A stretch of DNA of 64,000 nucleotides from Antedon mediterranea (Eukaryota > Animalia > Echinodermata). The notes beneath the pieces are model-generated. The model ran no database searches. It saw only the letters and a program-made list of their open reading frames with translations, and was not told the origin of the DNA. Every line of letters begins with the position of its first letter. Position 1 is the first letter of the stretch. Below, one piece after another: positions 20,901-64,000 of this stretch. Position numbers and translations under genes: made by a program. The stretch covers positions 2,914,001-2,978,000 of the forward strand of contig NC_092673.1 of NCBI RefSeq assembly GCF_964355755.1, given 5' to 3'.

Positions 20901-23900
20901 CATTACATGTTTGTTGACTTCATGGCATTGGAAGCCTTTTTATTATTGGAGAATTGTTATGTAACGATGAAGCAATATATGATTCTTTGCTGAGATGTTA
21001 TGGGCATATTGGTGGTGGTGGTGGTATTTACGAAGAAATATATATATTTTTTCACAATTGTTATTGTTCATGAGTAGGCCCTATCCCAGTTATTCAAAAA
21101 GACAAAAGACATTTTATTTTAAACAAAAACTATTGTTTGCCAGACAATTTAAGTATTTTTTTGCTTTAATTTACATTCATTCAGGTAAATAATTTTTTTT
21201 CGATACAGTTTTTGGTCAAAGTGAATAACTATTATTTGACATTAAAATGGCATATTTAAAAAAACAATTTTAAAAGATAATTTTTTAGGAGGACAATATA
21301 TCTTTTAAACTGTTACGTCAACAAGTCGAGCGGCGTTTTTTTTTGTAAGAAATATTTCGTTATTTATAAACAGGGAGGTTTACATATCCCTGATGAATAA
21401 GCTTATTTTATGAACAGTAAATGTGGCATGTGTATTGCCATTTACAAACATCTCCAGCGTATTTATAATCGATAAAAAATATACCAGCAACATCTGTATG
21501 TCAATAATACCTTGAAAACAGTTAAAATGATTTAATGTATTACAACGACGAAAATACAAATTTACCACCAAAACAACAATTGTGAACATACATAACATAA
21601 TACAAATAATGTTGCCGCACTGCGTTGTTAAGTGATTTACATCTGATTTACATATTTTTATACCGTATTATTTGTGTTTTTTTTATATAGCTCTGCCTAC
21701 ACGATGGAACTAGTCATCATGTCCATGGGCACATCACATACATATTTTGTCACATACAGTTTAATATAGTGTAGACAGAGCTTTAAACACTTGTCCGTCT
21801 ATATTTTTAGGGACTCTACAGCTCACTGTCGGTCGGTTGGTCGGTAAACACTAACTTGAGAACGCGACATGGCCTTGTTTATTATGGTTTTGATGAGAAT
21901 GTTCTTCAACCCATTTGAAAACAACATTTTAGTTAATTCTATATGTTTTTGCTTGGTTCATCATTAGGCCTACATCTAAATTGTATTTAATTGAGATTTC
22001 TAAAAGTAAATCGATCAAAACCGATTTGGTTTATTTTTTATTTTTCTAGTCGACAATACTTTACCATAATATCTTACACGATATTTATTTATGAAAATTA
22101 AAATGAGTTCTTTTACCTTAAAGATGTATTGTCCCTTGAAACACAATAAAATGAAGGTCAAAATATTCTAAATTTAAAGTGGCCATATCAAAGTAATACA
22201 GGTATTAAAGTTATTCACTTTAAGTCGAAAATTCGAGCCAAAAACAACAAGTTTACGTAATTAACAGGTAAATTAGTTTGATTACATTTCATCTGGAAAA
22301 TCGTCACGAGCAAAAGTAAACAAATATTTCAAACCATTAGTACGCATTATGCATATGCTAAATAAGGATATTATACAACTCGTCACGGTTAAGAAGGTAT
22401 TTTCACACAGATCATGAGTAAGTTTTATGATTATGCATACAGAGTAGCCAAACAAGCGCGTTTCATTATGGGATATGTTTTGATTGAAAACTTTGACTGG
22501 AAGTCAAAGTTATTTTTTTAACAAAAAAACGTCTGTATTTCAGTTAAACAATTTTTTTTTCGAAAAATTTTTGGTGATAGTTAATAATTATTATGATACT
22601 TCAAAATGACCCACGTTTTTTCGAAATCTTTTATTTTTTATTTTTTTGGAATTAGTCAAAGGGACAATACATCTTTAAACATAACAGGTTGTAGATATTA
22701 AATACTTCCGGACTGAGAAGATTTTCATAGTATTCTTATTATTACGAACAATCATTAAAATTAAAACTATTTTTCTATGTAAAATTTATATTAATAATTT
22801 CGATCCGTGAATAAGAATATCGAAGGCGGTAGTGCATACTTCCGGATAGATTCCGTTTCTATTCTATGAATTTTCGTAAATCTGAACAATCGGATTAAAA
22901 ATGTGTTTCTATGTAATGTTGTAAATAATAAATATTGTTTGTTTGTTGGCAAGATATTATATTATCGTAATTAATATTTATTACGTCATAACCTGGTGTT
23001 ATAATTGTCAACAACTAAAGAGCCGAATAATTTGAGAAATGTGACGGATTTTTACAAAACGAACGAACGTCGTTCAACCGCCGTCAACCCGCACGCGAGT
23101 TCAACCGCCGCCAACCGACGCACGTTGAACCGCCATCAACCCTGCACGCCGTGCGTTGAACCGCCGTCAATCCTCACGTCGCGCGTTCAACCGCCGTCAA
23201 CCAACACGCGCGTCGTTGAACCGCCGCCGTCAACCCGCACGCGCGTCGTTAAAGCGCCGCCGTCAACCCGCACGTACGTGTTAAATTTACCTGCATTTTT
23301 TTAATGAATTCTTTGAATACTATTTTTAGTAACATCATTATTATCTATAATAATAGGCCTACGTACATGTGTATTATTTCCTCATTATTTCTTCATTAAG
23401 TCTTTCAAAATAGACTCAGTTTCGTATGGCTTAGTTCTTGGTATAACAGTCGTAACTATAGACTTATTTCAATGGTCATTGTCCTACCAATTATTAAAAA
23501 AATATATATTTCTTTGAATATATATTTTTTTTTATACATCGTATCTATCGTTTCCTTCAATGAATCCTGGCTCTTCCAAACTTTGAAAAATAAAATCTTC
23601 ATAATTCTTTAAAAAAAAATAATGTGGTTTGTATTTTAAAAAAAATATTAATTCGATCTAAACTAATCTGCGTTTTTGTAAAAATCCATCACATTTCTCA
23701 TACAAAATAATTACATAGCATGTTGTGTTGTTGCAACCTTGGTGTCAGTGCCATTTCACTCGTCTACCACCCTATAATCTTTCTCCAGTAGCATAGGAGT
23801 AGGCCTACTTATAATACAACATCACATGTGTTTCACATGTATCTCCTACTATCTCAAACTATAACATAACCGTAAATGATTCACATTATTTGTGATACAA

Positions 23901-26900
23901 GATTATATTATTCCTGATATACTGGGCACATATTTTACTGTAGTAATGTGGAGATAGGCCTACAGTGGTTGAATAAGGGTATCTCAAATACTGTAATTGT
24001 TATTAGAACGCCGTTTTTGTTTGTTTGGAGGGTTTTTTTTCTTGGATATAAAATACACACTTCGTACCCGGTAAATCATGTTATAATAATGGGTTATAGT
24101 TCTCACTGATTATAAATTGTCTTCCGATAATCTTTCGAATCGTACAGTTACATTCTAGGAATACTCAATGTTTCTTACTAGTATACGTATAATATAACAA
24201 TATTAGTGTAGTTGAATACCATCCCGAGACTACCTGCGTTTAGAGGTCATGTGATTGTGGAATAATGTTCCTCATCTTTCTCGTTATACGTGTTTGTGCC
24301 GAGTATAGCTTCCAGTTGTTATAGGCTATATGAATATAATAACGGATTAATGATTATTTCTCACTCCAGCTTGCCGATTTCCCTTTCTATGGCGCTTTTG
24401 AAGTGTGAACAACCACTATTTTCCCTCCTCTTTTTCGTTATATTTTTCTCCTTTACACCACTGCGTCATTTATATCGCTCTTTAAATACTTTTGTTTGAT
24501 TGGAAAATTAATGTCAAAAGAATTTTTTGAGTACACACTTATCTCAATCAAACCTCTGTCTCCTATGAGCCGAACTCATTAAAATAAACAAATACGGTTG
24601 TAGGTCGTGTTTGACTGTCGATTTTGTGAGAGCAGAATAGTCGTTTATTCCCACTCCTGCTTATTCCAGGACAGTATACCTCCTTAATTGGCATAAGGAG
24701 TGCCCCCTAAATTGAGGTGTCCCACTAGAACGCAACACAGTGACGCAAAGTGCTGTCTTGCGTAATCACAAGTATACAGTAGGAACCGACGACGCAATAG
24801 TGCTGCAAACATCGTGGCAGGCGCAAACACAATGATTGGAAGGGTATTTTCTTACGTTGCGTCGCTAGTGGGACCCAAGCTTTAAGAACGGGTATACAAT
24901 ACTTCCTATGTTATGGCATGATGATCATCCTCCTGCGTTCCTCTTTTATATTATATGTAGCCCTAAAATATAAGCATATATTGTGTTTTTTATTTCCGTA
25001 TTTGATACTTATCTTTAGCTCTTTAAGTTAATGCAAATGTATTTATTAGATATCAAAAACAAGAAATAATGATTGATTCGTGTTATAAGCCATGATTCTT
25101 ATCAGCGTACGATCGTAATGGATTTAATCAATTAATACTATATTGAATAATATAAGATCCGCCAGGGATCTGTGTTCGTTGGTGAAGCCATTATCGATGT
25201 AATGAAAGTCTACATTAAAAAATAATCAATTGTAATTTTTCACAAATCCATTATTGATATTCCAATTGCGTCATTCGTTTTATATTATCGTTGTTTAGTT
25301 CGCTAGCATTGTATTACATGGATGTGATATTTGTACTGAATAATGCGTCTCTGGAGACTGTGAAACGGATTGAACTTCGGTTTCTGGTTACAAACTTTGA
25401 TCGGTGCATGGCTTCCATTCGCTCTTCCTTCTTGTGGAATATTTCGATAGTCCTGTGATGATCCTAATTGGGTTGCAGAATCTGCATCAGCTCATGTCAA
25501 CATCGCATCCTCTTCGATTGTATTATCTCAGCTCATGTCATGTCATCATCGCATCCTCTTCGATTGTATCATCTGCATCAGCTCATGTCATGTCGACATC
25601 GCATCCTCTTCGATTGTATCATCTGCATCAGCTCATGTCATGTCAACATCGCATCCTCTTCGATTGTATCATCTGCATCAGCTCATGTCATGTCAACATC
25701 CCATCCTCTTCGATTGTATCATCTGCATCAGCTCATGTCATGTCAACATCGCATCCTCTTCGATGGTATCATCTGCATCAGCTCATGTCATGTCAACATC
25801 GCATCCTCTTCGATTGTATCATCTGCATCAGCTCATGTCATGTCAACATCGCATCCTCTTCGATTGTATCATCTGCATCAGCTCATGTCATGTCGACATC
25901 GCATCCTCTTCGATTGTATCATCTGCATCAGCTCATGTCATGTCAACATCGCATCCTCTTCGATTGTATCATCTGCATCAGCTCATGTCAACATCGCATC
26001 CTCTTCGATTGTATCATCTGCATCAGCTCATGTCATGTCAACATCGCATCCTCTTCGATTGTATCATCTGCATCAGCTCATGTCAACATCGCATCCTCTT
26101 CGATTGTATCATCTCAGCTCATGTCATGTCAACATCGCATCCTCTTCGATTGTATCAACTGCATCAGCTCATGTCATGTCAACATCGCATCCTCTTCGAT
26201 TGTATCAACTGCATCAGCTCATGTCATGTCAACATCGCATCCTCTTCGATGGTATCATCTGCATCAGCTCATGTCATGTCAACATCGCATCCTCTTCGAT
26301 TGTATCATCTGCATCAGCTCATGTCATGTCAACATCGCATCCTCTTCGATTGTATCATCTGCATCAGCTCATGTCATGTCAACATTGCATCCTCTTCGAT
26401 TGTATCATCTGCATCAGCTCATGTCAACATCGCATCCTCTTCGATTGTATCATCTGCATCAGCTCATGTCATGTCAACATCGCATCCTCTTCGATTGTAT
26501 CATCTGCATCAGCTCATGTCAACATCGCATCCTCTTCGATTGTATCATCTCAGCTCATGTCATGTCAACATCGCATCCTCTTCGATTGTATCAACTGAAC
26601 CAGCTCATGTCATGTCAACATCGCATCCTCTTTGATTGTATCAACTGCATCAGCTCATGTCATGTCAATATCGCATCCTCTTCGATGGTATCATCTGCAT
26701 CAGCTCATGTCATGTCAACATCGCATCCTCTTCGATTGTATCATCTGCATATAGCTCATTTCATGTCAACATCGCATCATCTTATCTTCGATTGTATCAT
26801 CTGCATCAGCTCGCTTCTTTTATATTTTAGTATTCACATCTCCCCCCCCCCCCATTGTTATGTGTGTTATAATCAATCATCAATACAATGTCTCTTAATC

Positions 26901-29900
26901 CTTCACATTTCAAATTTTCCAAACAAAAAATTTATACCATATTCTTTTTATTATGTACTAAAGAATACTTGAAAACAAGGGATTAAATTAGTTCCGATCG
27001 TCATGGTAACTAACTCCAAGGTATTAAATATTGTATTAACACATAATATAGTTTAATGCTTGGATGAAAATGAACGAGTTATGCTACATAAATCAATCAA
27101 TGCGTCCTATATCAATTTCTCAATTTACTTACTGAGCCAAAATGAAGGTAATTTATTGCTATTTATTAGAATTAGCTATAGTGATGATAAGTGAAGTTAG
27201 CTCCAGGTATTATTTTGTTTCTTGGGATGGGGATGGGAATGGTATTAGCGGGAGGCCGACGACTGAACATCGTCTAAAGCTCTATCTACACTATCAAACT
27301 TTATGTGACAAACAAAATGTGATGTGTTTATATATGGACATGATGATATCATATCATACCATATTTGGGCATATCACTACCTTATTTGTGTATATCACAC
27401 CTATGCCTAGATAGTGTAGACTAAGCTTTAGTTTGGGAGTAAACTGGTAGTAGCTACCCATGGCGTATAATGTCTTCATACAGCTTCTCTAAACGAAGAA
27501 CAATTCATATAGGCGTAGCCTAATACATTAAGCCAAGGTAGATATTGGAACACCTTGTACAAAATTCTCAAAAATACGGATGTTACGTCTATAATGTGAA
27601 ATTATGACCTGTTTTTGAAAGTGAAAATTAATAGCGTGTCGTGTCCTGATCATTATGTTTGTCATTATAGACTCATGTTCCTTCCGCTCACTCTGCTGTT
27701 TGTTTTAACAGTTATCTCATTTTTCATCATAACAATAGGTTGCTGCTATTATTCATAAATCACGAACCTTTACAAAAATGTAGTTTTTACTTTAAAGACT
27801 TTATACCTCCATGTTTAACAAAATTGCATGGAAACGGTAAATGAATACATACACACCCCGGAGCCGTTCAAAAGGTGGCAAATAAAATTACAGAGAAAAT
27901 GGGCTTTTAGATATTTAAAATTTCAATAAAATTCATATAAAATTCCAAAAATGCTTTGCAGGAGATACCATTATACTGTTTACAATTAATAATATTAATT
28001 AATTAAACTTTTGGAAACCAATATTTATATTTCTGAAAAGGTCTGTAGGAACGAAACACTGGGTGAGAAGAGAGCAGGTTTATGTACATTTAGAGTTGAT
28101 TATTCAATTAGAAAAAGAAAAGTTTGGCAGAAAATCCAGAAAAGTAGGCCTAACTCAATATATCAAAATATCTACAGCTATATAATGTAAAATCCACTTT
28201 ATGGGAAGCTTCTAAATGGTTGCATTTACTCACTCCATGTAATGTATTCGTTTATTACTGTAATAATTATTGATTGTTTGAAAATTACGAAAATGCATGT
28301 ATAATGACATAATGACTGAGTCGTGTGTAAAGACGTTACAATGTGATTAACAATCTTTTGTAGGCTTTGATGTTTTCTATGAAATGTTTTCAACATGTAT
28401 CAGTCAATGTCACGCAACCTTTCTTACGTAGATAAATAACTTTATTAACATCAAAACATAGTCATTAATTTGCTTTCGGTAAAGTAATTTGTTTTGTTTG
28501 TTTGGGGATTTTTAAAAATTTTTCTCGGTATTAGTTTTGTATTTGATAATATCATTTTGATATTAGGTTTTTTTTATTGTCATTGTTATCTGTTGATAAC
28601 GTTATATCATAGTTTTCAGAATTCTTGCGGAATTCCTGTGGCCTAGTTATTGCAATCATTCCCGGACAAAAACACATGAAGGCTGCCTACGCTTTGTTGA
28701 ATTTAGGAATGCTCTCCGAATATATTCATACATATTATGTTGTACTGTTTAGTTAGCATACCTTCTTTTTTCTGAGTGAGATTCTGGTGGTATAGTTATA
28801 TGTCTAGTTCTTAATTCTGTGAGTGGGTATTGTACCTCCACGTTTATCTGCGCTTGTATTAGGACCTCTCGGAATACTAATTAGGCTACTCGTGTAACTT
28901 CTCCTGCTTTAAGAGATACTGGTAGGCATATAGGTGTTTGTTTACGTTTAAGGTCCATTTACACTAGGATGATAACGATCGACGATATAAATAGATAATT
29001 ATGCATTTTTCATATATATAAAAAAAGAAATCTAACAAGTTCTCATCCTATAAACTATAGTAATGTTACCGGTGGGAATAAAGGACGCCTTGAAACTTTC
29101 ATCCGTCGGGCTGGTAAAATGATTGGTCTGGAACTGCCTTCCATTACCGATGTGCACCTAGAACACCTCCAGAAAGATTTCGAACGCATTGAGTCGGATG
29201 CCTCTCATCCTCTCCACAAAGTGATCATAGACCAACTTAATCCAAGTGGTAGATTGAGGCTCCTCAGTGTGAAAACAAATCGATATGCCAAATCCTTTAT
29301 TTCCTCCGGTATCATCCAGTACAACAGGAAGTCAAAAAGATAATATTATCTTGTATTTTTTTAGCTGTTTTTATATGAATGGTTATATGCTATATGTGTA
29401 TTTATTGTATTTTCTTTGTTTTTTTTATTATGACGAGCATTGAATTTCCTTTTTGAGGATCAATAAAAGTTATCTTATCTTATCTTATCTTATACTACTA
29501 TATTCTTCCTTTGATGATGTTCACACGTCCAATCAAATGATGTCAAGATTGATAAGAAAAATAATATCGTGACAACAATTTTATTGTTTTTAATAATCAT
29601 GACGTCATTTGATTGTGATTAAAAAATATGGGTTTTTTTTATCAAAGACAGCATAAATGGTTATCCTATAGTTCTAGAACGAAAAACCTTTATTATTTAT
29701 TTTGTTGTGTAATAAAAATGCATGCTTATCTTTCTCGTCCTAGTGTAAATGAGTCTGTATTTCTATGAGAATGACCTTTAAATTAAAAAGGAGATTTTTT
29801 GGTGTTCCGCCATCCAAACAAAGTTTTAAAACGTTATTATAATCTTTGTTCATCAAATAAAGGATTGACCCACTAATTTATTATATGAATTGAATTAGGT

Positions 29901-32900
29901 CATGTTTCATTCTGTCACACTTGACTGCTTTCAATATATTGCATATGTTATTAATCATTTGAAATCTTAACATCCGGGTTTTGGGTATCAATACTTCCTT
30001 ATCAATAATTCCACACGCAATAGTCTCCTTGTGGGGATAGTCCGATGAGACCGAACAAGGTAAATGGACTTGTGCCAGTGCCTTTGGATGCAACGTAAAG
30101 CTCTGTCTACACTATCACTTCAAATCAAACTTGACAAAAAAATGTGATGTGCCCATCATAATAGACATGATGATGTCATATCACTGCCATATTTGTGCAC
30201 ACCACACATTTTTTTTAACTAGTTTGACCTGGCACATCTTTATAAGCCTTTAAGCAGCTACGACGAGAGAGGTGGACATTTTGAGAACATTCGAGTTGTT
30301 TTTTGTTTTCATTTTTAAATTTTAAATTCTTTACTGTGATCACTTCGATATTTAAATGTCTTGTCAAAGTCACAGTGGTCGGTGGTTTTCCTTGATTTAC
30401 CATATCATTCAAGAACCGTAAAGATACATATTATGACTATGCACTATAATGTGTCACTATAATAATCACTAGTAGAAGATTATTTGGATTTGATATGGAT
30501 TAATATGTCGGGATTTGATAATAATCCCAAGTTAGTTTTAATTGCTCCTGATTTAAATAATCTTGAGTCGGCACACTTTCTTTCTTCTTCCCCATAATAT
30601 TGTCTTATTTTAAAAAAAATTACGATCTTTACCAAACACATTGAAATAATAGCACGACAACATTGTGGCAATTTAAGGACATACTTTAAAGACCAATTCT
30701 AGATCTCCTTAAAATCTGGCGCTTTTTTGCACGCCCCTTCTTTCGACGACAAAGGGCGTTAAAGACTTTCTAGTATAATTTTAGTTTGGGCCCATTGCCT
30801 AGCAGATCACTGTCTGCAAGTAATGTAATAATTTACATAACAAGACAACTGAAATCATGTTGATCAAAGACAATAAGAACGAAATATGAATCACTTAACA
30901 TCTAATAACGAGAGGATGTCTTAAAGATTTAAAATTCCAGTGAGTCAAAATGACTGTGCAGCGGCATTTAAGTTGAATTGACGTTTTGTGGGCACCATGG
31001 CTGCTTGTTGACATTTTGTATCACAGCCACGTGGATTACACACCGGCTTGACTAATTGACAGAATCGAAAGAAAGGGGGCTTTCAAATTCTTTATAATTA
31101 AGTTAATTAAGCAGTGGAGATATGGCTGTTGTTTTCTTTCCCTTTAAACAGATATGAATTATGTTGTAGCTGTTAGTATTTAGGCGTGCTTTGTTAAAAC
31201 CGAATGTCACTAACCAACGATATTATATATTGTAGGCCTGTAGCTAAAGCTTGGTTCCCACTAGAACGTAACGCAAGGACGTAAACGCAACGCAAGCGTT
31301 TCAACCAATGACAAGCGAAGTTATAGACAGTTAGCAATCACAAGCGAATAAGCCATCGCTTGTGATTGGTCAATTCACTTGTGTTGCGTTACGTCCTTGT
31401 GTTGCGTCGCTAGTGGGAACCACGCTTTAGGACGAACATTTTCTGCAGTTTTGTAGTTCTGTTGGGAAGAAATACAGCCCCCTACTAGTGGCTCTTGCAT
31501 GGAAGCCTACATCAGCTAAAATATAAATCTGTATAATAAAGAAAGAAAAATAACAGCCAAAACAGCCAATCATATTTCCTGCATAGCCTAATTAACTTGA
31601 TTATAAAGAATTTGAACCCCTTTCGTATATTAACATAGGCTGTTAGAGTTGGCCCTTACGCCTAGTTATATTGCGAAATCAGATTTTTAATTGATGGGTT
31701 TCAATGGGGATTTCAAAACATACCGTATGCCTTAAATAATAAAAGGACCCGGGGCGAGTTATATCTCAACCCCTGGATCCACCTACGTTTTTTCTCTGAG
31801 ATTCTTGATCTGTGTTGTGTTTATTGCAAGTTTATCATTCATTATGTGACTTTAGTTTGTAATATGAGCGTTAGAGACATCGATATTTTATTAGGCCTAC
31901 TGGTCCTTGATTTTAGAAATAAACTACGAAGCGGAATACAGTAGAGTATTAGGAGTTGGGTAGTTGAGTGGTTAGGACATTTGACTGTCACACAAGAGAG
32001 ACCGGGTTCAATTCTACTCGGCTGTAAATGAGTACCTGATTAAAAATACTAGGGAGGACAAGGCGCTGTGGAAAGTAACTGGCCACCCTCCACATAATGC
32101 CGAGGCAAAATGAGCTCCCCGATGAGCTCCTAACAGTTCATTACTCATTATGTTCAGAATTGAATACGGGACCTTTACCTGTTTTTGTTTTGTTGCTGTT
32201 GTTTTTGTATAATATTATGTACCATTATATGAGCGTGATGGAGATTGCGTTAACACTGGATAACTACTTATACCTGGTCTTGCATTATTTAGACTATAAC
32301 AGATGGCATTTTGATATAATATTGATTGATAATACAACAGCCATCATGATATTGATGATACACACGACGCAGGTAGTGAGTTTAGTCCAGATATAATCCT
32401 CCCGACTGTACGCGCTTAAATCACGCAGTTTTAAGTAGGTGCTTATTCGATGCGAACAAGCAGAACACGTCATAACGTGAAAATGATTAATGTGTGATAT
32501 TTAGGTGACAGACAGTGTACTGTTGTCAGTTTGTTAACTAAATACACGAATTGTAAAATATGATAAACACAATCTATTTGAGTCAAAGTGCAAGTCCCTG
32601 GTAGGCCTACAAAAATGTTTCAATTTCTTATGCAATAATTCTCGTGGTGTCGCTGACGAAATTACACTTTTCCCTGTGACAAAATAATGGTCTACTATCA
32701 TGCCTGCTTGAAAGTAAACCTGCGATGTTTGAAACACTATTGCGTCGTCGGTTTCTACTTGTGATTACGCAATATTTTGCGTCGATACGTCGCTGCGTTG
32801 CGTTCTCTAGTGGAAACACGCTTTAGCTCCAGAACGCAAGGATGTGGACACAACGCACGAGTTAACACGTACACGCGACAGTTTGGATAAGCTATCGCGT

Positions 32901-35900
32901 CATGGCTCAGTAGTCACTTGCGGCGCGCTTGCTTCAGTGGGAACCATTGAATTTAAATTTAAATTTATATTTATACTGGGTAACCTCTTCAGTCAAAGAC
33001 TGGTCTCCCAGAGGGCCCAGTTGGTGATAAGTGGCTGTGATGTACTAACTAACTAAACACCGGGGTAACCCCCTACTCGTCTCGAAAGATGTACTAGGTT
33101 CTTTAAAGTTCACACGAGCTAGATGTGTACACTGGACCTACGGTTTATAGTCCTTATCCGAGAAGACTCGTTCTACCACCAGAACCATGGAGTGAGTGAG
33201 CCTCGAACCCCTGCCGATGTTATGGCTACGTAATTACGGTTCCACTGTCTTAACCGCTCGGCCACTCACTCACTCACCAAGCTTTTAAAATTAAATACAC
33301 GTCATCGAAAGCAAAACTATGTTTCAACATTTGTTTAGTAAACATGCGTTGTCATAAATGAAAAACTTATGCCATGGAACATGGAAGATCGGTTCTCAAT
33401 ATGATTATCTATATAGGCCCTAAATGGCTGGTGAAATCTTAGGGAATGCACCGCCCAAATCAATTGGAATAACAAATGATTCACGAGTGCTACAACGTAC
33501 TTTTACCTACTAAAAATGATGACATTATGAATATGTGTTTACATGAAATGTTTTGATAAAATAACCAGACAAGCACTTGATTTGCTTGTTGCAATATATG
33601 ATTTAAACTGTATACAGTCAAAGTCGTTGACTCCGCCCACTGTCTTGCCATTGGCTCGAAATATTGGCTTTGATTACGTAATGATCCTTTTTACACATGC
33701 CCGTGACTAACCGTGACGTCATAGTTCGTAATCTATAAAGCACTGGTGCTTTACAAAGAGCTCATACACTAAAGCAACCTGACAAACAAAAGAGCTGGAA
33801 AATACGAGATTACATCATACCTAAATACAGACGTGTTTTATACTTGTGGGTATATACCAGCTTTTATTTCAGACTTTATCATTTGATATTTTCATCCAAC
33901 GAATTCAAGTAACTAATACTATAAACAACACAGTTGAAATGGAAGAATTTGGCCAGGATACAACATGCTACTCTGAACGAAGAATGGCAAGGCGCAACGC
34001 ACTGCCGAATGTGATGGAAGGTATTGAGCCTAACCAGTTGCAGAACCTGAGAGTACCTCTTCTTGGTTTGCCGAACTATACCAGTGACGAGGAACACGAT
34101 GAAACCTGTGATTTACCCCATGTTACCACCAGTTCATCTGAATGTTTCTTGTCGATTTTGTCATACGATGTCGCCAATAACAAGCACAACGCAGCAGATG
34201 AACACAATGTGAGCATAGGAGGACAGCATTCGAATGTCATGGATAAGGACATTATGAACATTCCTTGTTATCGTCGTCGAAGGAACGCGTTACCCGACGC
34301 GTTAGCCATACTTGACGACAAAAGCCGACAGAGAATAAGCTCACTGGGATCAAAGCACCGCGGGAAATATGGATTAAGGCCGTGGTAAAAGAAACAGTTA
34401 TTTTCTTGCAGGACTTTTTTAAATGCATAACTCGTTTATTATAAACAATGATATATAAATACAAGTCAATAATCACAGCGGTATAATGTTCAACTAATGA
34501 TTTATAAGCAGGACTTATGTTCAACCAAACTTAGCAGACGAACTTTGAAATTTTAGAAACACACAGACTAACTACTGTACAAGTTACATACGTCAACATT
34601 TTCTTCACTCAAGTTCTTTTTTAGTCGGCAAGTTTTGTTCTTGGCGAGCCTACTTGACATTTCCAACTCGCATAAAGACTTTGAATGCACGGTCCAAGTC
34701 ACGGGGACTGTTTTTCTGGCGCCGCTTGTCTTACATTATATTGTAGTAATTGAGCATTAATGTAAAACCAATACTGTACTAACAAACTAAAATATTCGTA
34801 TATTTAAATTTTTAAATCACTAAATCACTGAATTAATATTATTTAATAACACGTACATTATCTTTAATATTATGTAAACATATGATAAGTCATATTATAC
34901 TACTATAGGAACAGAGAAATATTATATTCTTGGGATAATGCGAACAATGCAATCTTTATCATCGATAAGGCTCTGTAATCAAGTTGTTTTATTATTGTCT
35001 GTCTGAACCATTATTGCTAAACTTCATATTTCACGTGAGTTTTGCTGCCCTTATCTTATGTTGTTACGATTAGGCCTAGGTACATTTTGGAAAGTAATAA
35101 TACTGTACAGCAAGTAATAAAAGCTAAGCTTATCTTGGCAAATAAATGTCTTCACTTTCAACGTTGTTCATCACAAAACGGCCAGTTTTTCTGAGTAATT
35201 GCTATGGTATATAGCCGTAATGCTGCTATATACTCTAAATGAATATAAATCACAGATATAGACGAGTTTATTTCGCCTTCCGACAAACCGTTTATATTAT
35301 GTATGCATATGTGTCTTTCATGTTTTAGGAAAGATAATTTCGATATTAAAAGCATTTTTTCACGAATTGATTAATAAAGAATAAACTATTTAATATAAAT
35401 TATTCTGATTGTTGTAATATTTTGTTATGTATGTGGGCGTGACGGTTGCTAGACCTAAGGTGGGAGGTGTTCGTTGTCGAGTCATAGTGAGGTGTTCGGA
35501 CGTTTCTTAAGTAAACTCGGATATAGGCACAGTAATCACTTCCTCGTCGGTATCCAGAACACAGGATAGATACAGGTAGCAGTCCGTTCAGATGGGTATT
35601 AACGGGTATATACCTTAGTCCGTTCAGATGAGTGTTGTTATACTACAACGATGAAGCAGCAGAGTGTGTATGGTGCGCTAGATAAAACATAATTATCATC
35701 ATTACAGTGTGAACGTTATACAATGCAGTATTGATATTAGACCACATTGACGAATGTCAAATAGGCCTACCATAATAGTCATAATAATCATGGTATAATG
35801 ACTATCATAATAGTCATTATATCATTTGACTGATAGTTTGTGGTTTTTCGGGTTTTTATTAGTAACTCTATATCCCACAATTAATTGCAAGATTCCAGTT

Positions 35901-38900
35901 TTTGATGATTGGGGTATATCTTGTTTTCTTCTACAGAGAGTATGCTATGTTGTGTCGCACTGAAATTGCGTTCATTTAACATACAGCAACAATATAGTAT
36001 TGAAGCCATTGCCACTATAAATGTGCTATGTTGTTTTGGAGTGTTTTCCTCGGCCCAACGTCTCTGTTATATTGATACAGTGTGGTAAATGATTTAAAGT
36101 AAAGACGTCATTTCCGTTCTACAGGTTGAATGTTTTCATGTCTCTAGTAGTGCATACGATATGGCAACATTCGATAGCCCGATGTAGGCTAACAATTATA
36201 AGCAAGCCAATCTTTAACACACGTTTGTGCTTTTTTTACCTATATGTCAAATTACCAAGCACATATTTGGAATATTTAATGATTATATTCTTCACTCTCG
36301 GCAAACTGAGATTCAATTTTATATTAAAAACATTGAAAAACACGGACAGTGAAATGTCATTTATATGTATCACTTTTGCACCTCATTTCACAACAGTAGG
36401 CCTAAATGCTAGATCTTATTCAAAATAGGCCTACTCGTCGCGTCGTCAAAATTAATAGACAAGCGGTCGTTTAAAAAAAACTACTAATTGCGTGGCGCAC
36501 CTGTAGCGCGACGCAGTTATATATTTGTAAACGTCGTACGTCATGGTAACTTTACAGCCTACTCTATGAGAGCTATAGGCCTACCCAGAAATATTTCAAC
36601 CATTATTTACTGGTAGTCCTATCACAAATCTCAATACACACACTCTGAATAAGTTAACTTATTTCTCTATGCTTTCACCGATTAAGCTAGTTATGCCATC
36701 ACCGGCAGGCCTATCTACCGTAGGCTACACCATCAATTAAAAAAAATCATCCCTCGTTATTGAATTCTGAACGAGTAATGATAATTCGTTCCATATCATT
36801 AAACAAGATAACTATATAAGATTACAATGTACTTTATTGTAGACTGTATTGCTACTGTTGCCATGACTATTGTTGATTGCAGTAGCGGCATACTTCAGTA
36901 CCGTACCTAAACAAGTTAATATTACTGATTAGTTGAATTTCCTGAACATCTGGCACTTTGCTTGTTGTTAATAAAAGTGAATTCATGTATGGTTTCGGGC
37001 CAAGGTTGATAATAATGTTATAATAATGAATAACCTACTTTCAGATTGTTCATGTAAAGAAAAAAACAATAAACAAACATCTATGAGACATCTATGAGAG
37101 CTTAAAGCTCTATCTACACTATCAAACGTTATGTTTGATGTGCCAAAATAGTGATATGCTCAAAAAGGTATAATAGTCATATGACATCATCATGTCCAAA
37201 TATGGGCACATCACACTTTTTTTGTCACTTTAGTTGTAGGTATAAAAAATGCATATTTATCTTTCTATCGTCGACTGTTATCGCCCTAGTGTAAATGGCC
37301 TTTAAAGATCCATATTTTGCGCGCGTGCACACGTAGTTCGTGTGCACGCAAAATAAATCAAAGTTATCAGTGTTGGTGGGACCGGGAAGCGTTTCGTATG
37401 GTTAGGGTTTTAATTCATAAACATTTAAAATATAAATTGCAATTGAGTGCCACTTTAAAAAAGGACAAGGTGACAGTGAGTTTGGAAAACCAAAAACAAA
37501 ATTGAGTCGAATGATGATATGGTCTGGGGAATAATTCCCTGGGAAAGTAGGCCTACCCTTTTCTTTTTTTTATTAAAAAAAGAATAAAACGGTTTTTTTT
37601 TTTATTTCCGTCAGCAATAAAAAAATTATGAAAACCACCTGATGTATTATATGGCAACCAATGAATGGTATTGTTCAGAAACTAGGTGCGTAATAACGAA
37701 TCCCTGATGAATTGTTATGCAATGACTCTACCACCAGAATACTTCATATCAAAATTCCCCTATAAAGAATCGGTTATTGCTTGCAGGCTCGATCATGTAG
37801 AGGCCTAACATTCCAGTAGTTCTGTGAAATCAAATACTGTAATGCGCTTCACATGTGCTCCTCAAGCATTCACCAATGAAATATATAGAACGGTAAATCG
37901 GTAGCACTATTTGGGGTAATACATACCCGTCCTACTTAAACAAACTGTTATTGATCCAAAAGAAAACCGTAAGATACATAGCAAATGCTCCTTTATCCCA
38001 TTCCAATCCTTTATTGGTTATCCGCAACGAAGTTGCAGGATAACCTCTTGTGATTGTACGAAATCATTCTGTATGATTTTTGTGTAACGCTTTTCTCTAA
38101 AACTCGCAAACATAACATTTCGGTAACTATCTTAACATATTGACATTTACGTAACGTCGTCAAGCGAAGCTTTTCATGACGTTTACAATTGCGCAACGTG
38201 ACTTACGCGCGATTTAACGATTTTGTCGTATTTAACATAGCTCGACAACCAAATAACATTTCAACTTGAAACTTTGCAAAAGTTTAATTTATATCATGCG
38301 CTAACTTTCTGTTGAAAAAAAATTCCGTGTTTTAAACAAAGTTACGCGCGCACGCGCATTTAAAATTTCAAAATGCGCAAAATTAATTTCTAATCAACTT
38401 TCTACGCGTTTCATGTCGTTTTAAGCATGTCAAAAATTCCCGCGCGTGCGCACATTTTTACGTGTGCGGTGCACACGTAGCATTGAAAACGTATTTTTTT
38501 TCGTAATTTATGTTTTTCCAGCCTTTTCTAGTAATTTTACCAAATTTTAAACAATTTCGACTTAAAGATACGTCATACGAGCACGTCGAATTGAACAATT
38601 TGCGCGCGTTTTTTATGAAAAGGTTAAACAATTCGTTTAAAATATGCCTTTTTTTAAACAGTCGTAATTTCTAAACTAGACGGTCAACTTTTTGTGGATG
38701 ACATATTCTAGAAGTAGATGAGTTGTAGATATCGGATCAGGTATTAATATGGCTAACCGGACATTGTGACGTCATCGTATGGCCACGCGAATATAAAATT
38801 TAGGATTTTTGTATCTTTCGTCATAGCTCATCACATTGAATAGAGCGCATCTCCACTTATCCGTTTTCTATTTTCACCCCGATTTTGATATTGTCTAGGT

Positions 38901-41900
38901 CAATCAACTATCTTTCGCATGAGTTAAAAATATTTTAATTTTTTTGACGTCATCATGCCTAAAAATTTAAATCACGTGTGGCATTAATTTCATCTTTACA
39001 GTAAATTTTAATCTGTTATAGCTCGTAAGAATAAAATGTGATAATCACGATTAAAACTTTTCCTGGAAGCTATTGGATTGTAGATACGAAATTATGTAAA
39101 AATGTTGCCAATCGGATGTTGTGACGTCATCATATGGCCAGTTAAATAAAAAAGGTCGTATTTTCATCTTTTGCGTCATAATTCATTACATTTAAAAGAG
39201 CGCGCATCAATATTTAACGTATTCAAATTTCTTCTACACGCTAATACGTTGTTGCTGAGATAATTTCCTTTCGGAATTGCTAACTTCGCGTTTCATTTTA
39301 AAACCGTCAACATGTTAAAAATTGCAATAAATAGCGGGTCCCGTAATTTCACCTATTCTACACTGTATGTGATATGGATACAGATTATACTGTGTATACT
39401 ATATATGAATTTAAATAATAAAATTCAGCAATAACAACATATCATATTCTTCAGTTCAGGTCATAATGCCAACGTGAACACTTCCTTTTGTCCTCAACCT
39501 ATCCCTTTAATGTTAATGTTGCACCACTTGCGCGGCGGATAACCAAACTCGTCAAAGTGACGAGTTACATGTCTAGTTTTCTTCTTTTGGTCTTCTTAAA
39601 ATTCAGGATATTAACCATCTTCAACAAAGTGTTTTCCTCTATTCATGGCTAAACTCGATCCTGCCATCACACTTTGATGATTTATTTAGTTTCAATCTTA
39701 ATTTTCATAACCACAGTACTCGGAGCGCAAATCAAATACGTATTCCTTTTTTTAAAACTACTTCTTTTAAACATAGCATTAAGTTCACTGGTCCTAAACT
39801 TTGGGATAACGTACCAGTTAATATAAAAAGTGCTTTGTCTAAGAAGATTTTTTCTTTTAAATTGAAACGGCACCTGTTATCTAGTTATGTTTAATTATCC
39901 TTTCACTCATTGTAGTTTTGATATTTAGTCTTTTCGGTACCCTGAATCTAAAAGTCTTCATTACTGTTTTTGTCCTGTTTCCGGTTCCCGTGTTGTCCTG
40001 TTTTTGTTTTTTTTTTCATTTTCTATGGGCTGCCTTATACAAGCTTTGCTTTTTAGGAATGTTGCCCCTCTTATTTTAATAATTTTTACTGTTAATTTTT
40101 ATTTTCTATGAAAGACAAGAGAAATAAATGTTACTTTGATTGATTGATTGATTGAAAATCCTTTAGGGCACAATTTATTGAGAGACCTACTGTACCTTTA
40201 TAGTATGATGTATTTATGCTTTGTCTGCACTATCAACATGTATGTGACAATGTGATGTGCCCATGGACATGATGATGTCATATCACTACCTTATTTGGGT
40301 ATATTACTACCACATTTGGGCACATCACACTTTTTTTGTCAAAATAATTTGATAGTGTTATAGACAGAGCTTAAGGCCTATTTGAGAATTATCATCTAAA
40401 GGCAGAGTATTGGCAAAAATACGTTAGGCCTATATAGTTTGTAATTGCTAGGCCTATATTCTTTTATACTATTAGTTTGTAAGCCACAATATACACTAAT
40501 ATAAACATGGTAGACCTACGGAGACAACTCCTGGAGTCGATGGAATTGTTATAACCGTGTCGTCATCCATTCATACCAATGTGTTGGTGTTTTTGAACTG
40601 AACTGAACTTTTATTGTATCTCTTTTAAATCAGAGGCACAGTCTCAATGAGATGTGCAACAAGTTTACAGTGAAAAATAATACATACACACTTAAATATA
40701 AATACAAAACAAGAAATTAGACATGAGAACAAAATTACAAAAAAAAAAATTTAAGAAAACTGAGACAGATTAAATACTAAGAAAATGGATAAATTAAGTT
40801 TGAGAAGGAATTGTATTATATATATCATTTCGTGTGTTCCAAGCCATGGTCAGAAAAATTTTGCAATGTTTGTCGAAAATAATACTTGCTGGGTGTTGAT
40901 CAACTGAAAGTAATCCTTCTTACTGCGCAGCTTGAGGCTAAAAACTGAATTCCATGCCGCGGTGCAATTCTTCTTCTTGTAGTTTCTACGTAAGTAGCCT
41001 CTGTAGTACATATCCTTTCTAATTTCCATGGTTTTATTCATTTAAAATAACCGCAAAGAATGTCTATTTTGTTAACAAACGTTTGTGGCAAAAAAAAAAA
41101 AAAAACGTTTTTGCTCGTAATTTATGATTCATATCGTTGCTTCCTAATGTCAGATTTGCATAAAAATGTACTTCCAACTATTATTAGATATTCTTCTAAT
41201 CAACTAACACAATTTTTAAAATTGAAAATAAATATTCGTGCGCTTGTCTCTTTAAATGTAACATTATAGAAAGGTAGATTGATTTATCAATAAAAAAAAA
41301 CCTTCATTGAATGTTTTTTTCCATCTAAAATAACAATTCTGTGAATTTGTCAAATTGGAAGCTCACATCCTTGTGGTTTCAATATATAGGCCTATGTTGT
41401 ATTGACCAATAATTGTATTTTATACCATAAACTTTCCTTGCTTTGTGATTACATCATGTGATGACGTCACAATACGGAACACGGATTGATTTTTATTATT
41501 GGTTGTAATTTGCCACATTTTGTCTTTTCCCATGAGTAATGGTATAATGCATGGTACTGTTGGTATATCAAGGATAACGAGTATGGAGCGCCAAATACCT
41601 GCTATTTACTTTAACCCTAACGCTTTCAAACTGGATGCGATGGATATGTATGGCGCGCTAAGTAAAATAATTTGTCCGTGCTTACTCTAAGGTATCTCTA
41701 TTGCAATCTTAAGATATTTCTATTAAAAATAAGGAACCTTTATTGAACCAAGATATCTACTATCTTCCGAATAAATGACAGTGGCGCGCCATACTATATA
41801 CGGATGTTGTAGTGGATCTCTTCTTAGGCTTGTAAATCTTGTAGAATGGTCTGAACTTAGCGGCCTACTTTCCTCAGTGAATGTTTGCAAAATCGCCGTT

Positions 41901-44775
41901 ATCTGTTTGTCTATAGTCAGTTTTTATGTAAATCGATATAACATTTGTTTATTTTAATATTGTATCAATAACACGGCCGGTCGTGAGAAGTGTGTTTACA
42001 TTACGATAATTATAATTGTTTGTATACTAAGATTAGGACATCCTAAACAATCGACACTTATACAGATCCGCAAGTAGAGACAAAAACCATATTGCACAAA
42101 CCACTAATTCTTTAAGATTATATATTTCCGCTGGTATTTTTTGTTGTTTTAGTGTTCAGGGCTTAGGCCCATAGGAGCGTTTGGGAGCAGACTGATATTA
42201 TGTAAGACCTCTGTAAAAGGGAAATATAATAATTTTAATATACGTTGAATATTCATGAAATTAGCCCAGTTACTCTATTAAATACCTGTTAAATATGTCC
42301 ATACGTCTACCAAAATGACTATCATAGCCTAATATATTTAGTGTGAGTACCTTTATATTTTGTTGATTCTAGTATAGGCCTACATGTTGCATTCCGTGAT
42401 TCACGTAAAAGTGTTTCAATTAGATCTGTTCATCCCATAACACGAAAGCTATACATTATCAGGGAAGAGTGATCTGATATTATCATCACCATTTCATCAT
42501 GTTTTCATCACTCATTTTAATTTTGCATTAATTATTGAAAGAGAGTACGTCTAATTTATGGCACCTTTGGGCGCGGTTCTTGCTCGACTTCCCCTCGAAT
42601 TTAACTGATTTGTTAAAGCCAAACACAAACGAGCGGTAATAATGGTGAAACTATGTTATTTCTTATGATCACACACAACGCGGAGCGGACGGACGAGATA
42701 GATACAACAGATTCTACGTGGGACAAGCTACGCGGTTTTCCGCTTGCCGTTACCGTTCGATCGTATGAGTATATGGGCCTTTTTGACCATACAACGCGGA
42801 GCGGACGAGCGGTTTCGCTGGATAGATACAGGTTCTACATGAGACAAGATACGCGGTTACCGCTCGTCTGTATAAATTGGCCTTTAACCATCTGGGAATC
42901 AAGTTAATTGATAATTGTCGTCTGATTATTGACTACGCGTCATCGAATGCGCAATAGCGCTCACTTGGGACAACATTAATTAGGTTGTGAGTCGTGATGA
43001 TTTACTGTTCCTGCTGAATGGATGAAGGACCTTTAGCAAAGTTCATTTTAAACCGTCGTTTATTTTGATATTTCCCTTCCTCCTACTATAACTATACTGA
43101 CGTTAGTACAACCAAGGCAATCTAACAGGATGCTGAGCTCTGGAGATCAAACGGTTTATATATGGCTGCCTGCTACACGATGAGTTCCACGCCCCTTAAC
43201 AGACATCGCGCCTCCGGTGAATATGTATATAGTACTGTTGGTATTATTTGTCCTGTTGGTATTATTTGTCGCAGCCAGACATAAGATCAAAGGACTGACG
43301 AGGCAAACCCAGTTTCATGCTGTTCGATCTCAAAGACATGCATGCATCTAATCATTATTGAATATTCTGATCTTCTGTGAAGAAGAAATGTTAAGTCTAC
43401 CAAAACCATTACATCTCATGTTTGTGCAATGAAGTATGGTTGAGGTTGATAACCACACCAAATGATTTTTTTCACAGTATAGTTTAGGTAAACGATAAAA
43501 TTAAACCCGCACGTGTTTATTGCGTAGATATCTCTTGATGGATAAACAGTTCATATACGCGCCACTGATTGCGACGCGTCCTAATTGAAAAAAATATATC
43601 CTACATTTTACAGATATTCTGACTGATGACTTGGTTAGACAAGAAGATAACGAAGAACAACGGAAATATATGGGAGTCTGTAAGCTGAATAAGGAAAACG
43701 CTAAGGTAAGGTAGCTATGTTTAGTGGATGGGGAGAGTTCAGTCGTAATATTAAAGCGTGGCTCCCACCAGTGACGCAACGCAGCGACGTATTGACGCAA
43801 ATTGATGTATTGCGTAATCACAAGTGGGAACCGACGACGCAACAGTGCTGCAAACATCGCAGGTTTGATTTCATACAGGAGGGAGAAAACACAATTATTG
43901 GAAGGGCATTTTCGCACGTTGCGTCGCTAGTGGAAACAAAGCTTTAGCCATCTACCTTTCAGATAAAAACTTTTACAGTTTTGTTCAAAGTTGTTTATTT
44001 TCTAGCCTTCAAACAAATTTTTGTCCAACATTTGTAATATTCTGGAGATAACAATGGGATTAATGATGTGTTGTTGTTGTGAAGAAGATGACGTTGATGA
44101 CGTAGAAGATAAAGACATTGGAGATAATTACAAAGATAATGTTGAAGATAAGGCCAGGGGGACAATGATAGATCGAATGCAATATCAGGGAGTTGATGAC
44201 GATGATGATAATGCCGATGATACAGATGACAAGACACCTTTATGCATTGTTCATACACCGAACAATTTCAATTTAATCTAATGTAATAAATAATAATTTA
44301 TGGTAATCTATTTTTATTTAGCATCGCCGCTTGGATATTATCGTGTCTCCATGGGATGAGTATCACTGCGCGCTTGTACATTTCACAGGTTCTGACCATT
44401 TCAATCGCTCATTGAGGGCGCTTGCCATAAAGAAGGTTTGTTCAATTATTACCTACTGTATATTGTTTTTTTTTAAAGTGTACGATATCATTTATTATAT
44501 AACACCTAAATAAATTCCTGTCATTATATTGGACGATTGTGGGTCACATGGCGTGCAATAGTACGCACTATTAAACGATTAATTATTTGTATAATAATAT
44601 CTGTATTTAAATTCTGCAGGGTATGTCATTATCTGAGCATGCACTGAGGCATGGAGTGATACGAAGAGGCAAAGTAAAGGTTCATAATGGAACACCTTTA
44701 CCGGTCCACTCGGAGGAAGATGTGTTTACTCACCTTGGCTTGGAATACAGAACACCTCATGAACGCGATTACTAA
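2959..44775 (+). CDS. POLL: DNA polymerase lambda (family X; BRCT, 8-kDa lyase and Pol X catalytic domains), 587 aa
   Basis: Coding exons 2959-3696, 4264-4341, 4595-4702, 5137-5316, 5843-5971, 6322-6490, 43614-43705, 44322-44435 and 44620-44775; all GT-AG with consistent phases. Motifs [63 protein letters not shown] and GMSLSEHAL are colinear with human Pol lambda. Confidence 0.96.
3722..3925 (-). mobile_element. 3' end of a Rex1/Babar-like LINE with (TATCT)n tail
   Basis: Reverse complement closely matches about 29280-29492 (end of ORF2, 3'UTR, AATAAA, microsatellite tail). Confidence 0.75.
6559..6862. repeat. Minisatellite, about 43-45-bp unit, about 7 copies
   Basis: Unit aataactacgcaaatattcaaccaattggaacgctcgccttgg repeated head-to-tail. 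Confidence 0.9.
8325..8640. mobile_element. Non-autonomous element with a long terminal palindrome (possibly Crypton-derived)
   Basis: About 80-bp-arm hairpin centred on aactcggctttgcctcgtt. Its 5' part (aacacctatataaattcctgtca...gtgggtcacatggcgtgc) recurs at about 9960-10078 (-) and 44497-44595. Confidence 0.55.
9614..9921. mobile_element. MITE family B (TIR AGC(T/G)TGGTTCCCACTAG); young copy 9679-9859 nested inside a related copy
   Basis: TAA/TAA target duplication at 9676 and 9860. Near-identical 180-bp copies at about 15435, 15640, 15979, 17710 and 31248. Variants at about 12024-12566, 14527, 16834, 24718, 32740, 43755 and 44776; collapsed TIR pair at 19384. Confidence 0.88.
10171..10209 (+). 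ncRNA. Minimal type I hammerhead ribozyme motif (Penelope-like element remnant)
   Basis: GCA-CTGATGA-A-GGGC(tagtgtt)GCCC-GAAA-GC-TC-TGC gives both conserved core boxes, a 4-bp stem II, a palindromic AGCT mini stem III and a short stem I. Confidence 0.65.
11262..11333 (-). pseudogene. tRNA-derived (Asp-like, ATC loop) sequence embedded in a dispersed repeat
   Basis: A box TGGTCTAATGG, anticodon arm TCTGC-ATATCAA-GCAGA, GGTTCGAGCC B box and T5 terminator, but a defective acceptor stem. Second degenerate copy with shared flanks at about 20325-20497 (+). Confidence 0.7.
11495..11672. repeat. 14-bp tandem repeat (gaatgaaatgtttt)n
   Basis: Direct inspection; about 12 imperfect copies. Confidence 0.9.
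12105..12508. mobile_element. MITE family C (Harbinger-like) inserted in a family B MITE
   Basis: TIR AGGCCCATTTACACTAGGGCGATAAC and TAA/TAA TSD; carries two TGACGTCA. Other copies at about 28951-29757 (split by a LINE), 4725-4980 and 37236-37302. Confidence 0.85.
13177..13363. mobile_element. MITE family F
   Basis: TIR (A)GRCCAAWTTACACAGACGAGC with TWA flanks; further copies at about 17043-17221 and 42617-42883. Confidence 0.8.
15211..15363. repeat. 31-bp tandem repeat, 5 copies
   Basis: cttccgagtaggcctatgcctgctcgtatgc starts at 15211, 15242, 15273, 15304 and 15335. Confidence 0.95.
20051..20140. repeat. GC-rich tandem repeat of about 17 bp (gcgccgcggtagaataa), 5 copies
   Basis: Direct inspection. 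Confidence 0.85.
22122..22674. mobile_element. Non-autonomous Kolobok-like DNA transposon
   Basis: TIR AGATGTATTGTCCC...GGGACAATACATCT flanked by TTAA on both sides. A related left end sits at 18320 and a related right end at about 21303. Confidence 0.8.
23068..23283. repeat. GC-rich degenerate tandem repeat of about 30 bp
   Basis: Recurring gtt(c/g)aaccgccgtcaacccgcacgcg units. Confidence 0.8.
25480..26811. repeat. 50-bp satellite array, about 27 monomers, with higher-order structure
   Basis: Monomer cgattgtatcatctgcatcagctcatgtcatgtcaacatcgcatcctctt, with 45- and 46-bp deletion variants. Confidence 0.97.
29062..29492 (+). mobile_element. 5'-truncated Rex1/Babar-like LINE inserted in a family C MITE
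   Basis: ORF end MIGLELPSI...DASHPLH...[19 protein letters not shown] resembles the Rex1-type ORF2 C-terminus; followed by AATAAA and (TATCT)n. Confidence 0.75.
31070..31625. mobile_element. Old long-TIR element with a family B MITE (31248-31426) in its centre
   Basis: gaaagggggctttcaaattctttataattaagttaatta at about 31071 is inverted relative to about 31588-31624. Confidence 0.6.
31950..32185 (+). mobile_element. tRNA-derived SINE (Deu/Nin-like body)
   Basis: tRNA head with A and B boxes and GTC loop, then ctcggctgtaaatgagtacctg, and tail gggacctttacct. Confidence 0.65.
32949..33277 (-). mobile_element. Full-length tRNA-derived SINE (V/Meta-like central domain)
   Basis: Head gtggccgagcggttaag...ggttcgagg; body taaaccgtaggtcc...taaagaacc...gagtaggggttaccccggtg; AT-rich tail. 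Partial copies at about 47383-47580 (+) and 53041-53249 (-). Confidence 0.8.
33631..33770 (+). promoter_or_regulatory. TATA promoter with proximal CRE for the nested PKI-like gene
   Basis: GC box 33631-33640, inverted CCAAT at 33650 and 33663, TTACGTAA 33674-33681, TGACTAA 33704, TGACGTCA 33714-33721, TATAAA 33734-33739, and Inr-like TCATAC with its A at 33764 (30 nt from TATA). Confidence 0.75.
33939..34388 (+). CDS. Intronless PKI-like (cAMP-dependent protein kinase inhibitor-like) protein with two pseudosubstrate motifs, 149 aa, nested in POLL intron 6
   Basis: First ATG after the TATA/Inr, in strong context gaaATGG. Motifs R15-x-x-R18R19N20A21L22P and R112RRRNALPD; LRVPLLGL at residues 37-44. 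Non-repetitive sequence. AATAAA at 35116 and 35141. Confidence 0.8.
   Translation: MEEFGQDTTCYSERRMARRNALPNVMEGIEPNQLQNLRVPLLGLPNYTSDEEHDETCDLPHVTTSSSECFLSILSYDVANNKHNAADEHNVSIGGQHSNVMDKDIMNIPCYRRRRNALPDALAILDDKSRQRISSLGSKHRGKYGLRPW
38011..39360. mobile_element. Helentron/DINE-1-like (HINE) non-autonomous element
   Basis: Terminal hairpin GGTTATCC-GCAAC-GAA-GTTGC-A-GGATAACC after a T-rich site, and internal diverged repeats about 355 bp apart (38765 vs 39120). Confidence 0.55.
39675..40154 (+). mobile_element. 3' fragment of a CR1/L2/Crack-group LINE
   Basis: Translation [18 protein letters not shown]...[18 protein letters not shown]...KLKRHLL (one frameshift) is typical of the ORF2 C-terminus; followed by AATAAA and a (TTGA)n tail. 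Confidence 0.75.
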
Positions 44776-51779: not shown

Positions 51780-60157
<8,378 letters not shown>

Positions 60158-63656: not shown

Positions 63657-64000
63657 CTAAAAAAGATTTAAAAATAAATGACGTTCAATACATATTTCAT
63701 TTACAATAAATTATTAATTAAAATCAAGATTGTGAGCCATTTGATAAATAGGCAAAATGCCTTAAAATGCCTCACAAGTTTGGTGGTGACATATACAAAT
63801 TATTAATTGTAAATGAATGGTTACAATATATTGCTTACTGTGTAGTCTAGGTTCTAGACCGTAATTAGTAAAAAGATAAATACATTGGCACATATGGCGT
63901 TTCATACGTATAAGACATGAACTTGTATTTTCGTTCTAGTGGTGAGGATGAATATTTCAAAATGACTATTAATTTCGCTATAATAGGTGGTTTCAGTAGG

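Follow-up and report, generated by a model that had tools for sequence, protein, structure and literature searches.

A CRE-TATA promoter on a crinoid gene without introns that lies inside a POLL intron, and its product as a candidate tandem-pseudosubstrate brake on PKA

The locus described here, from a window of Antedon mediterranea DNA (the whole stretch that was analyzed, 64 kb), raises the question of whether a gene with a promoter of the cAMP-inducible type encodes an inhibitor of protein kinase A (PKA), and could thereby shut off the very signal that would induce it, as the initial annotation had proposed. The promoter is of the TATA type, lies in single-copy DNA, and serves an intronless crinoid gene nested in an intron of the DNA polymerase lambda gene (POLL).

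POLL exons were recognized at 2959-6490, an in-frame exon resumes from 43614, and thumb-domain exons lie near 44322-44772 (from a scan which took in 150 of 332 open frames); one POLL exon of the window is 100% identical to the Antedon mediterranea protein. Since POLL exons stand on either side and in frame, the gene encoding the protein designated P0001 sits inside a POLL intron and reads in the direction of its host, and this nesting is an addition to the account given in the initial annotation. The gene and its host intron comprise:
6491..43613, + strand, host intron of POLL (about 37 kb), delimited by the flanking POLL exons
33764..33938, + strand, predicted 5'UTR, free of ATG, with unspliced X1 cover from 33784
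33939..34388, + strand, single-exon ORF of 149 aa (P0001), for which homologues were found
34389..35595, + strand, 3'UTR of about 1.2 kb, its extent given by RNA-like X1 cover

In both Antedon (P0002) and Anneissia (P0003), the named short POLL isoforms end just past the exon before the intron, each with a short tail of its own, and these sequences hint that a long POLL intron with alternative ends may be common to crinoids. An alternative last exon of POLL (X2) lies inside the intron at 16497; just upstream of it, in the region 16276-16700, a near-CRE TGACGTCT (~16276) and TATATAAG (~16375) were observed, and this region may be a further transcription unit nested in the intron, its short ORF having about 28 aa. 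HSP70 exons, probably from the mitochondrial gene (54700-58700), and succinyl-CoA ligase alpha-type exons (61900-63700; Pfam Ligase_CoA, CoA_binding) occupy the minus strand further along, and no paralogue of P0001 was found within the window.

No run is recorded as RNA; run X1 was taken as probable RNA from its depth pattern. Its depth is about 630-1240 over 33784-35595 vs 0-6 in the unique flanks, distributed over contigs at 33784-33896 (depth 632), 33867-34678 (depth 1238) and 34726-35595 (depth 1025); DNA runs are flat across the locus, and run X3 covers the stretch as a single piece at depth 38. The earlier description of the gene as intronless is borne out by the X1 contigs, for which no splice joint is listed over 33784-34678 and 34726-35595, save for the unbridged 34679-34725. 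The leader holds no ATG in 179 nt (chance ~0.02). In the 3'UTR, AATAAA occurs at 35116, 35141, 35373 and 35380, and ATTTA at 34500, 34802, 34841 and 35388. The three ATTTA sites named earlier as part of an AU-rich 3'UTR are thus present, but their density and the AT content are at chance: four ATTTA in 1207 nt vs 4.6 expected, on which ARE enrichment was rejected, and 67% AT vs 65% for the window.

Upstream of the transcript, 107 bp of single-copy DNA holds a GC box, two reverse CCAAT boxes, ATTACGTAAT, TGACTAA, a CRE and TATAAA, and the motifs claimed initially (GC box, two CCAAT, TTACGTAA, AP-1-like site, CRE, TATAAA) were all found as placed:
33633..33638, - strand, GC box CCGCCC (GGGCGG on the minus strand), by motif scan
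33648..33656, - strand, NF-Y-type CCAAT box, full CCATTGGCT, with the ATTGG core at 33650-33654
33663-33667, reverse, second CCAAT as a bare ATTGG, by motif scan
33673..33682, no strand assigned, ATTACGTAAT palindrome, a PAR-bZIP/NFIL3 or C/EBP-type site, which has no counterpart in the related locus L001
33703..33710, + strand, GTGACTAA, an AP-1-like or second bZIP half-site, with TGACTAA at 33704-33710
33714..33721, no strand assigned, perfect CRE TGACGTCA, by motif scan, within GTGACGTCAT that is common to L001
33734-33739, + strand, TATAAA of the TATA box TATAAAG, by motif scan
33761..33766, + strand, initiator CTCATA with the predicted start A at 33764, by initiator consensus

The TTACGTAA motif occupies 33674-33681, within ATTACGTAAT, and the PAR element RTTAYGTAAY has a perfect match in the promoter, three such matches being present in the 64-kb window. 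GTGACTAA sits 10 bp ahead of the GTGAC of the CRE, and the gap between CRE and TATAAA is 12 bp, which places the promoter in the proximal CRE/TATA layout. Among the variants listed, from a small sample, none falls inside 33631-33770, an observation given no weight here. Because contigs can fix neither start nor strand, we infer the transcription start at 33764, and from the sequence this position is very probably right: the initiator A at 33764 lies exactly 30 bp from the TATA box and RNA-like cover sets in from 33784, in agreement with the start proposed earlier near 33764. The RNA-like X1 contig has no loose end on its 5' side, and the absence of X1 cover over 33450-33783, a gap in a single study, does not prove where transcription starts.

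Systematic counting was used to judge how unusual this arrangement is. The window contains 9 perfect CREs vs 0.65-1.6 expected, and five of them belong to sequences repeated within the window; those in dispersed repeats stand at 12267, 12334, 29600, 38767 and 39122, and such copies explain much of the CRE excess. TATAAA lies within 60 bp of three of the nine perfect CREs and a pair of CRE and TATAAA arises in 33 of 150 simulated windows; the pair alone is weak evidence and is not rare. Outside the promoter, no 150-bp stretch in the window brings together at least 4 of 6 motif classes, and as many classes around a CRE were met in 0 of 150 simulations, a significance which is overstated since the classes were picked after the finding was seen. 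A repeat origin of the promoter CRE was considered and rejected, as the DNA is single-copy and run X3 is flat at depth 38. Two abundant short inverted-repeat (MITE-like) families populate the window (for example 56270-56370, 57430-57560 and 15434-15824), of which the first contains internal 21-bp units and the second CCAAT-box matches, with up to ~29 overlapping self-matches; a tandem array at 25492-26812, with a 50-bp unit in ~27 copies, is open in three frames and probably non-coding.

A comparative footprint was available from one relative with upstream DNA, in which the CRE is kept (1 of 1). This relative, L001, encodes P0012 with 31% protein identity to P0001, is also intronless, and within 2216 bp holds a single perfect CRE, placed 21 bp ahead of its only TATAAA; the distance from TATA to ATG is 224 bp vs 205 in the Antedon gene. 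In 3000 dinucleotide shuffles, a CRE appeared in 105, within 400 bp of the ATG in 18 and with TATAAA in addition in none. GTGACGTCAT is common to both promoters and the remainder does not align; L001 has a GC box at -161 from TATA in the other orientation, an NF-Y-type box at -195 in the same orientation, and a GTGAC lying 11 bp before the GTGAC of its CRE (spotted after the fact). The phylogenetic footprinting suggested initially thus came out in favor of the CRE-TATA layout, which recurs at this degree of divergence, and from the comparison of the two sequences the CRE can with good confidence be presumed functional. Between -330 and +230 of the L001 TATA no PAR match was found, a C/EBP-like ATTGCACAAT being present at -230, and the clock or light input which had also been suggested is consequently left without comparative support. 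Circadian input was rejected on the ground that the D-box element is not conserved in L001; the PAR site is lineage-specific, and a circadian input to this promoter is improbable.

The product, P0001, carries two copies of a core resembling that of PKA inhibitors:
33990..34007, + strand, repeat 1 core RRNALP with Ala21 at the phospho-acceptor position, followed by a conserved N-V-M-x-G...L-x-x-L
34278..34295, + strand, repeat 2 core RRNALP with Ala117, followed by predicted helices at residues 117-123 and 127-140

Five of the six codons differ between the RRNALP copies, which argues for selection on the peptide, and two RRNALP-type motifs arose in 0.016% of 200,000 shuffles. AlphaFold models P0001 as mostly disordered with short helices after each core (pLDDT 54, pTM 0.19). 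Upstream of the cores, repeat 1 has Cys at P-11, Tyr at P-10 and Arg at P-6, and repeat 2 has Met and Tyr. No leucine-rich nuclear export signal (NES) of canonical spacing was found in P0001; residues 36-43 resemble PKIa 37-44 minus the last hydrophobe and are not conserved in relatives. Right after the core of repeat 2, R-Q-R-I-S-S (residues 130-135; window 34326-34343), which we take to fit the RxRxxS kinase-site consensus, was observed and is not kept in relatives.

A full HMMER search of 1.84 billion proteins returned 3 relatives (E 1e-5 to 3e-4), and a profile of those relatives gave 7 matches at E<=10, among which P0010 (E 0.12) and P0011 (E 4.2) are weak; a word search with the single sequence yielded no relative at E<=1 (21 candidates, 81-261 aa), and nothing usable came from querying the Atlas with P0001 and P0004. 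The exact P0001 sequence is not in the collection that has the species' POLL, from which we infer that the gene is probably unannotated. Locus scans retained one of 211 candidate stretches from metagenomes, and none of the 161 from prokaryotic genomes or the 24 from viral contigs. Thirteen sequences, cluster members included, align in four groups with ~30% identity between groups; members are of 114-265 aa with two repeats each, and three in P0009. RRN stands at both places in all 13 aligned relatives, and 15 of 15 repeats from 7 representatives (6 near-duplicates left out) read R-R-N-(A/G)-hydrophobic, an invariance partly built in, as repeats were chosen by the RRN[AG] pattern. After the core come N/D and a pair of residues that are mostly hydrophobic, in many cases a Gly, and then Leu/Ile at ~+13 and +16. 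The conserved segment thereby reaches P+16/P+20, 13-20 residues past the decoy site, and PKA inhibition alone would not need conservation so far past the decoy. Downstream of the core alone, likeness between N- and C-terminal repeats is weak (E 0.007-1.3; 7 targets, 6 reported). No PKI chain was recovered from the PDB, whether the query was the whole protein, either of two fragments or either of two profiles (family profile at E<=10); the only PDB matches of the family profile are to cardiac troponin I residues 144-191 (E 0.085-1.2), weak and without RRN.

It can be deciphered from the Pfam scans that both matched families are touched weakly, with every match below cut-off (PKI in 6 of 13 sequences, TC1 in 4 of 13), and scans of single repeats added nothing. 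P0001 reaches 14.4 bits against PKI (PF02827; E 0.047; family best E 0.012), where the gathering score is 25, and the match is in register, with residues 15-39 on model positions 15-39; five of the six PKI matches belong to one near-identical group. PKI proteins (PKIA/PKIB/PKIG) are likewise small and disordered with an RRNA-hydrophobic decoy core. They differ, however, in having one site in 70-75 aa, whereas the tandem family has two and up to three in 114-265 aa; in having the P-11 aromatic and the P-6 Arg, the former being absent here (0 of 15 repeats) and the latter mostly so (1 of 15, repeat 1 of P0001); and in the tandem family lacking a canonical NES and possessing an extra conserved helix segment after the decoy. 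With the PKI 5-24 peptide as the reference for upstream determinants (PMC7723848), the rarity of P-6 Arg and the absence of the P-11 aromatic suggest that PKA affinity may be low. Last repeats mostly carry Ile-Leu at P-12/P-11; that of the P0010 group, the most PKI-like member, parallels PKI 5-24 up to and through the core with a one-residue insertion. Filing the gene under PKI was rejected, since its Pfam score, its number of sites, its size, the residues upstream of the core and the lack of a canonical NES all speak against membership. The earlier label of "PKI-like" is therefore incomplete: the core fits it, whereas a score of 14.4 against 25, the presence of two sites in a 149-aa protein, the lack of a canonical NES and the closest relatives matching TC1 rather than PKI do not.

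The TC1 family (PF15063; gathering score 27) is matched at 11.7-18.8 bits by one clade (P0004/5/6/7), in which both repeats of P0004 are matched; the TC1 profile found no match in P0001, P0008, P0009 or the P0010 group. Model positions ~15-42 weakly match repeat 1 of the four relatives, some 28 of 75 positions. Presumably, the TC1 domain opens with a basic-Ala-hydrophobic motif and AVPI1 shares the domain. TC1/TCIM (C8orf4) resembles the P0001 gene in being single-exon with a disordered product, which are generic features. TC1/TCIM genes are cAMP- and stress-induced, and induction of the P0001 gene is a prediction; the repeat is tandem in the P0001 family and not in TC1, and TC-1 is reported only from jawed vertebrates (PMC5349172). 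Judged from these sequences, the gene is best placed in a family of tandem decoys that weakly resembles PKI as well as TC1. No paper on an RRN tandem family or on a PKI-TC1 link was found in the limited literature covered, mainly the main texts of papers outside subscription journals, and none among the matches listed combined a TC1-family term with "pseudosubstrate".

Proximal CRE/TATA promoters form the inducible class in neurons (PMC5740062), and acute CREB targets are described as enriched in feedback inhibitors (PMC12262311). In the proposed brake, CREB-type factors on the CRE would, upon a rise in cAMP or calcium, recruit coactivators at the TATA promoter, a short unspliced transcript would be made fast and translated into the 149-aa protein, and its two Arg-Arg-Asn-Ala-Leu decoy sites would plug the free PKA catalytic subunit at its active site, such that the signal is damped by delayed negative feedback. 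Both repeats fit R-R-X-(A/G)-hydrophobic, which PMC5059767 gives as the PKA inhibitor consensus, and RRN-Ala-hydrophobic is the PKI-type core according to PMC4674680. The latter also describes the PAK4 inhibitor Inka1 as disordered, with a pair of inhibitory boxes between which little is conserved; by analogy of design, two weak decoy sites could offset the missing high-affinity residues, Inka1 differing in kinase and in motif. RR-x-A-hydrophobic motifs outside the PKI family, in ARHGAP36 and Smoothened, are described as binding and inhibiting PKA-C, but these are single and inside large proteins, whereas P0001 would be a stand-alone gene with predicted induction. Fos, Nr4a, Dusp1, Sik1 and Rgs2 likewise have a proximal CRE and TATA and a feedback logic, and the P0001 brake differs in being, by prediction, a direct active-site decoy. 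On the sequence evidence, induction of the gene by cAMP or activity is probable, binding and inhibition of PKA by its product is somewhat favored, and the whole loop of a CREB-induced tandem-pseudosubstrate brake is a tentative proposal at a little below even confidence.

The same data allow other readings, and the repeats, taken as basic patch plus helix, might bind a non-PKA partner in a TC1/TCIM-like immediate-early gene whose loop is not closed on PKA. The TC1 matches (best E 0.0016) and the conserved segment beyond the decoy are consistent with it, as are the single exon of the human TC-1 gene (PMC5349172), the disorder and stress induction of human TC-1 (PMC4061086), and the rise of TCIM and AVPI1 under cAMP-raising stimuli (PMC12073449, PMC9346484). 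However, those matches stay below the cut-off of 27 and within one clade, and the strict RRN-Ala/Gly-hydrophobic core suits a PKA decoy, for which reasons we hold this reading unlikely, though deserving of serious attention. CREs also serve ATF/AP-1 stress signaling, and a PKA-type decoy could sit behind a promoter that is mainly constitutive or that answers to bZIP factors of the stress response (ATF, AP-1, C/EBP) with NF-Y and Sp, without cAMP feedback. GC and CCAAT boxes in both promoters fit this, and X1 cover is deep with no known stimulus, depth being a poor measure; against it, handling stress at dissection can itself induce such genes. Mammalian PKIB is reported as regulated via HIF1a, ERa and cFos (PMC11083500), but a full CRE less than 30 bp from TATA in both genes is the inducible layout of PMC5740062, and we regard a promoter without cAMP feedback as distinctly unlikely.

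The repeats might instead dock into a basophilic kinase other than PKA (PKG, PRKX, PKC, CaMK), or into calmodulin or some other EF-hand protein, which would suit the basic-plus-helix layout and the troponin I matches; as the latter are not significant and without RRN, and RRN-Ala-hydrophobic is PKI-type (PMC4674680), this is very improbable. A cluster due to chance or repeats, with an ORF that has no function or belongs to a POLL isoform, could draw on the enrichment of CREs in the window (often in repeats), the absence of P0001 where POLL is present and the alternative exon at 16497, but is already largely refuted by single-copy DNA, homologues at E 1e-5 to 3e-4, synonymous repeat divergence, the L001 layout and the contig without a loose 5' end, which makes it exceedingly unlikely. 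A speculative and rather unlikely extension of the PKA-brake reading is that the PKI inhibitors and the cAMP-induced vertebrate TC1/TCIM (and AVPI1) genes both derive from an ancestral module preserved in this intronless CRE-TATA family.

Overall, CREB-induced feedback inhibitors and PKA pseudosubstrates are already known; what is new is an apparently unannotated family with tandem PKA-type decoys and a CRE-TATA layout that survives ~70% protein divergence. Were the common module true, TC1 would not be confined to vertebrates, proteins of the TCIM type would be kinase pseudosubstrates that have gone unnoticed, and the feedback loop from CREB to a PKA decoy would be an old animal design. The overlap of the PKI and TC1 profiles in one repeat questions the reported restriction of TC1 to jawed vertebrates, and offers a testable mechanism for TCIM, a cAMP-induced gene linked to cancer and stress. 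For the crinoid itself, the finding bears on whether transcription-coupled shut-off of PKA exists in echinoderms.
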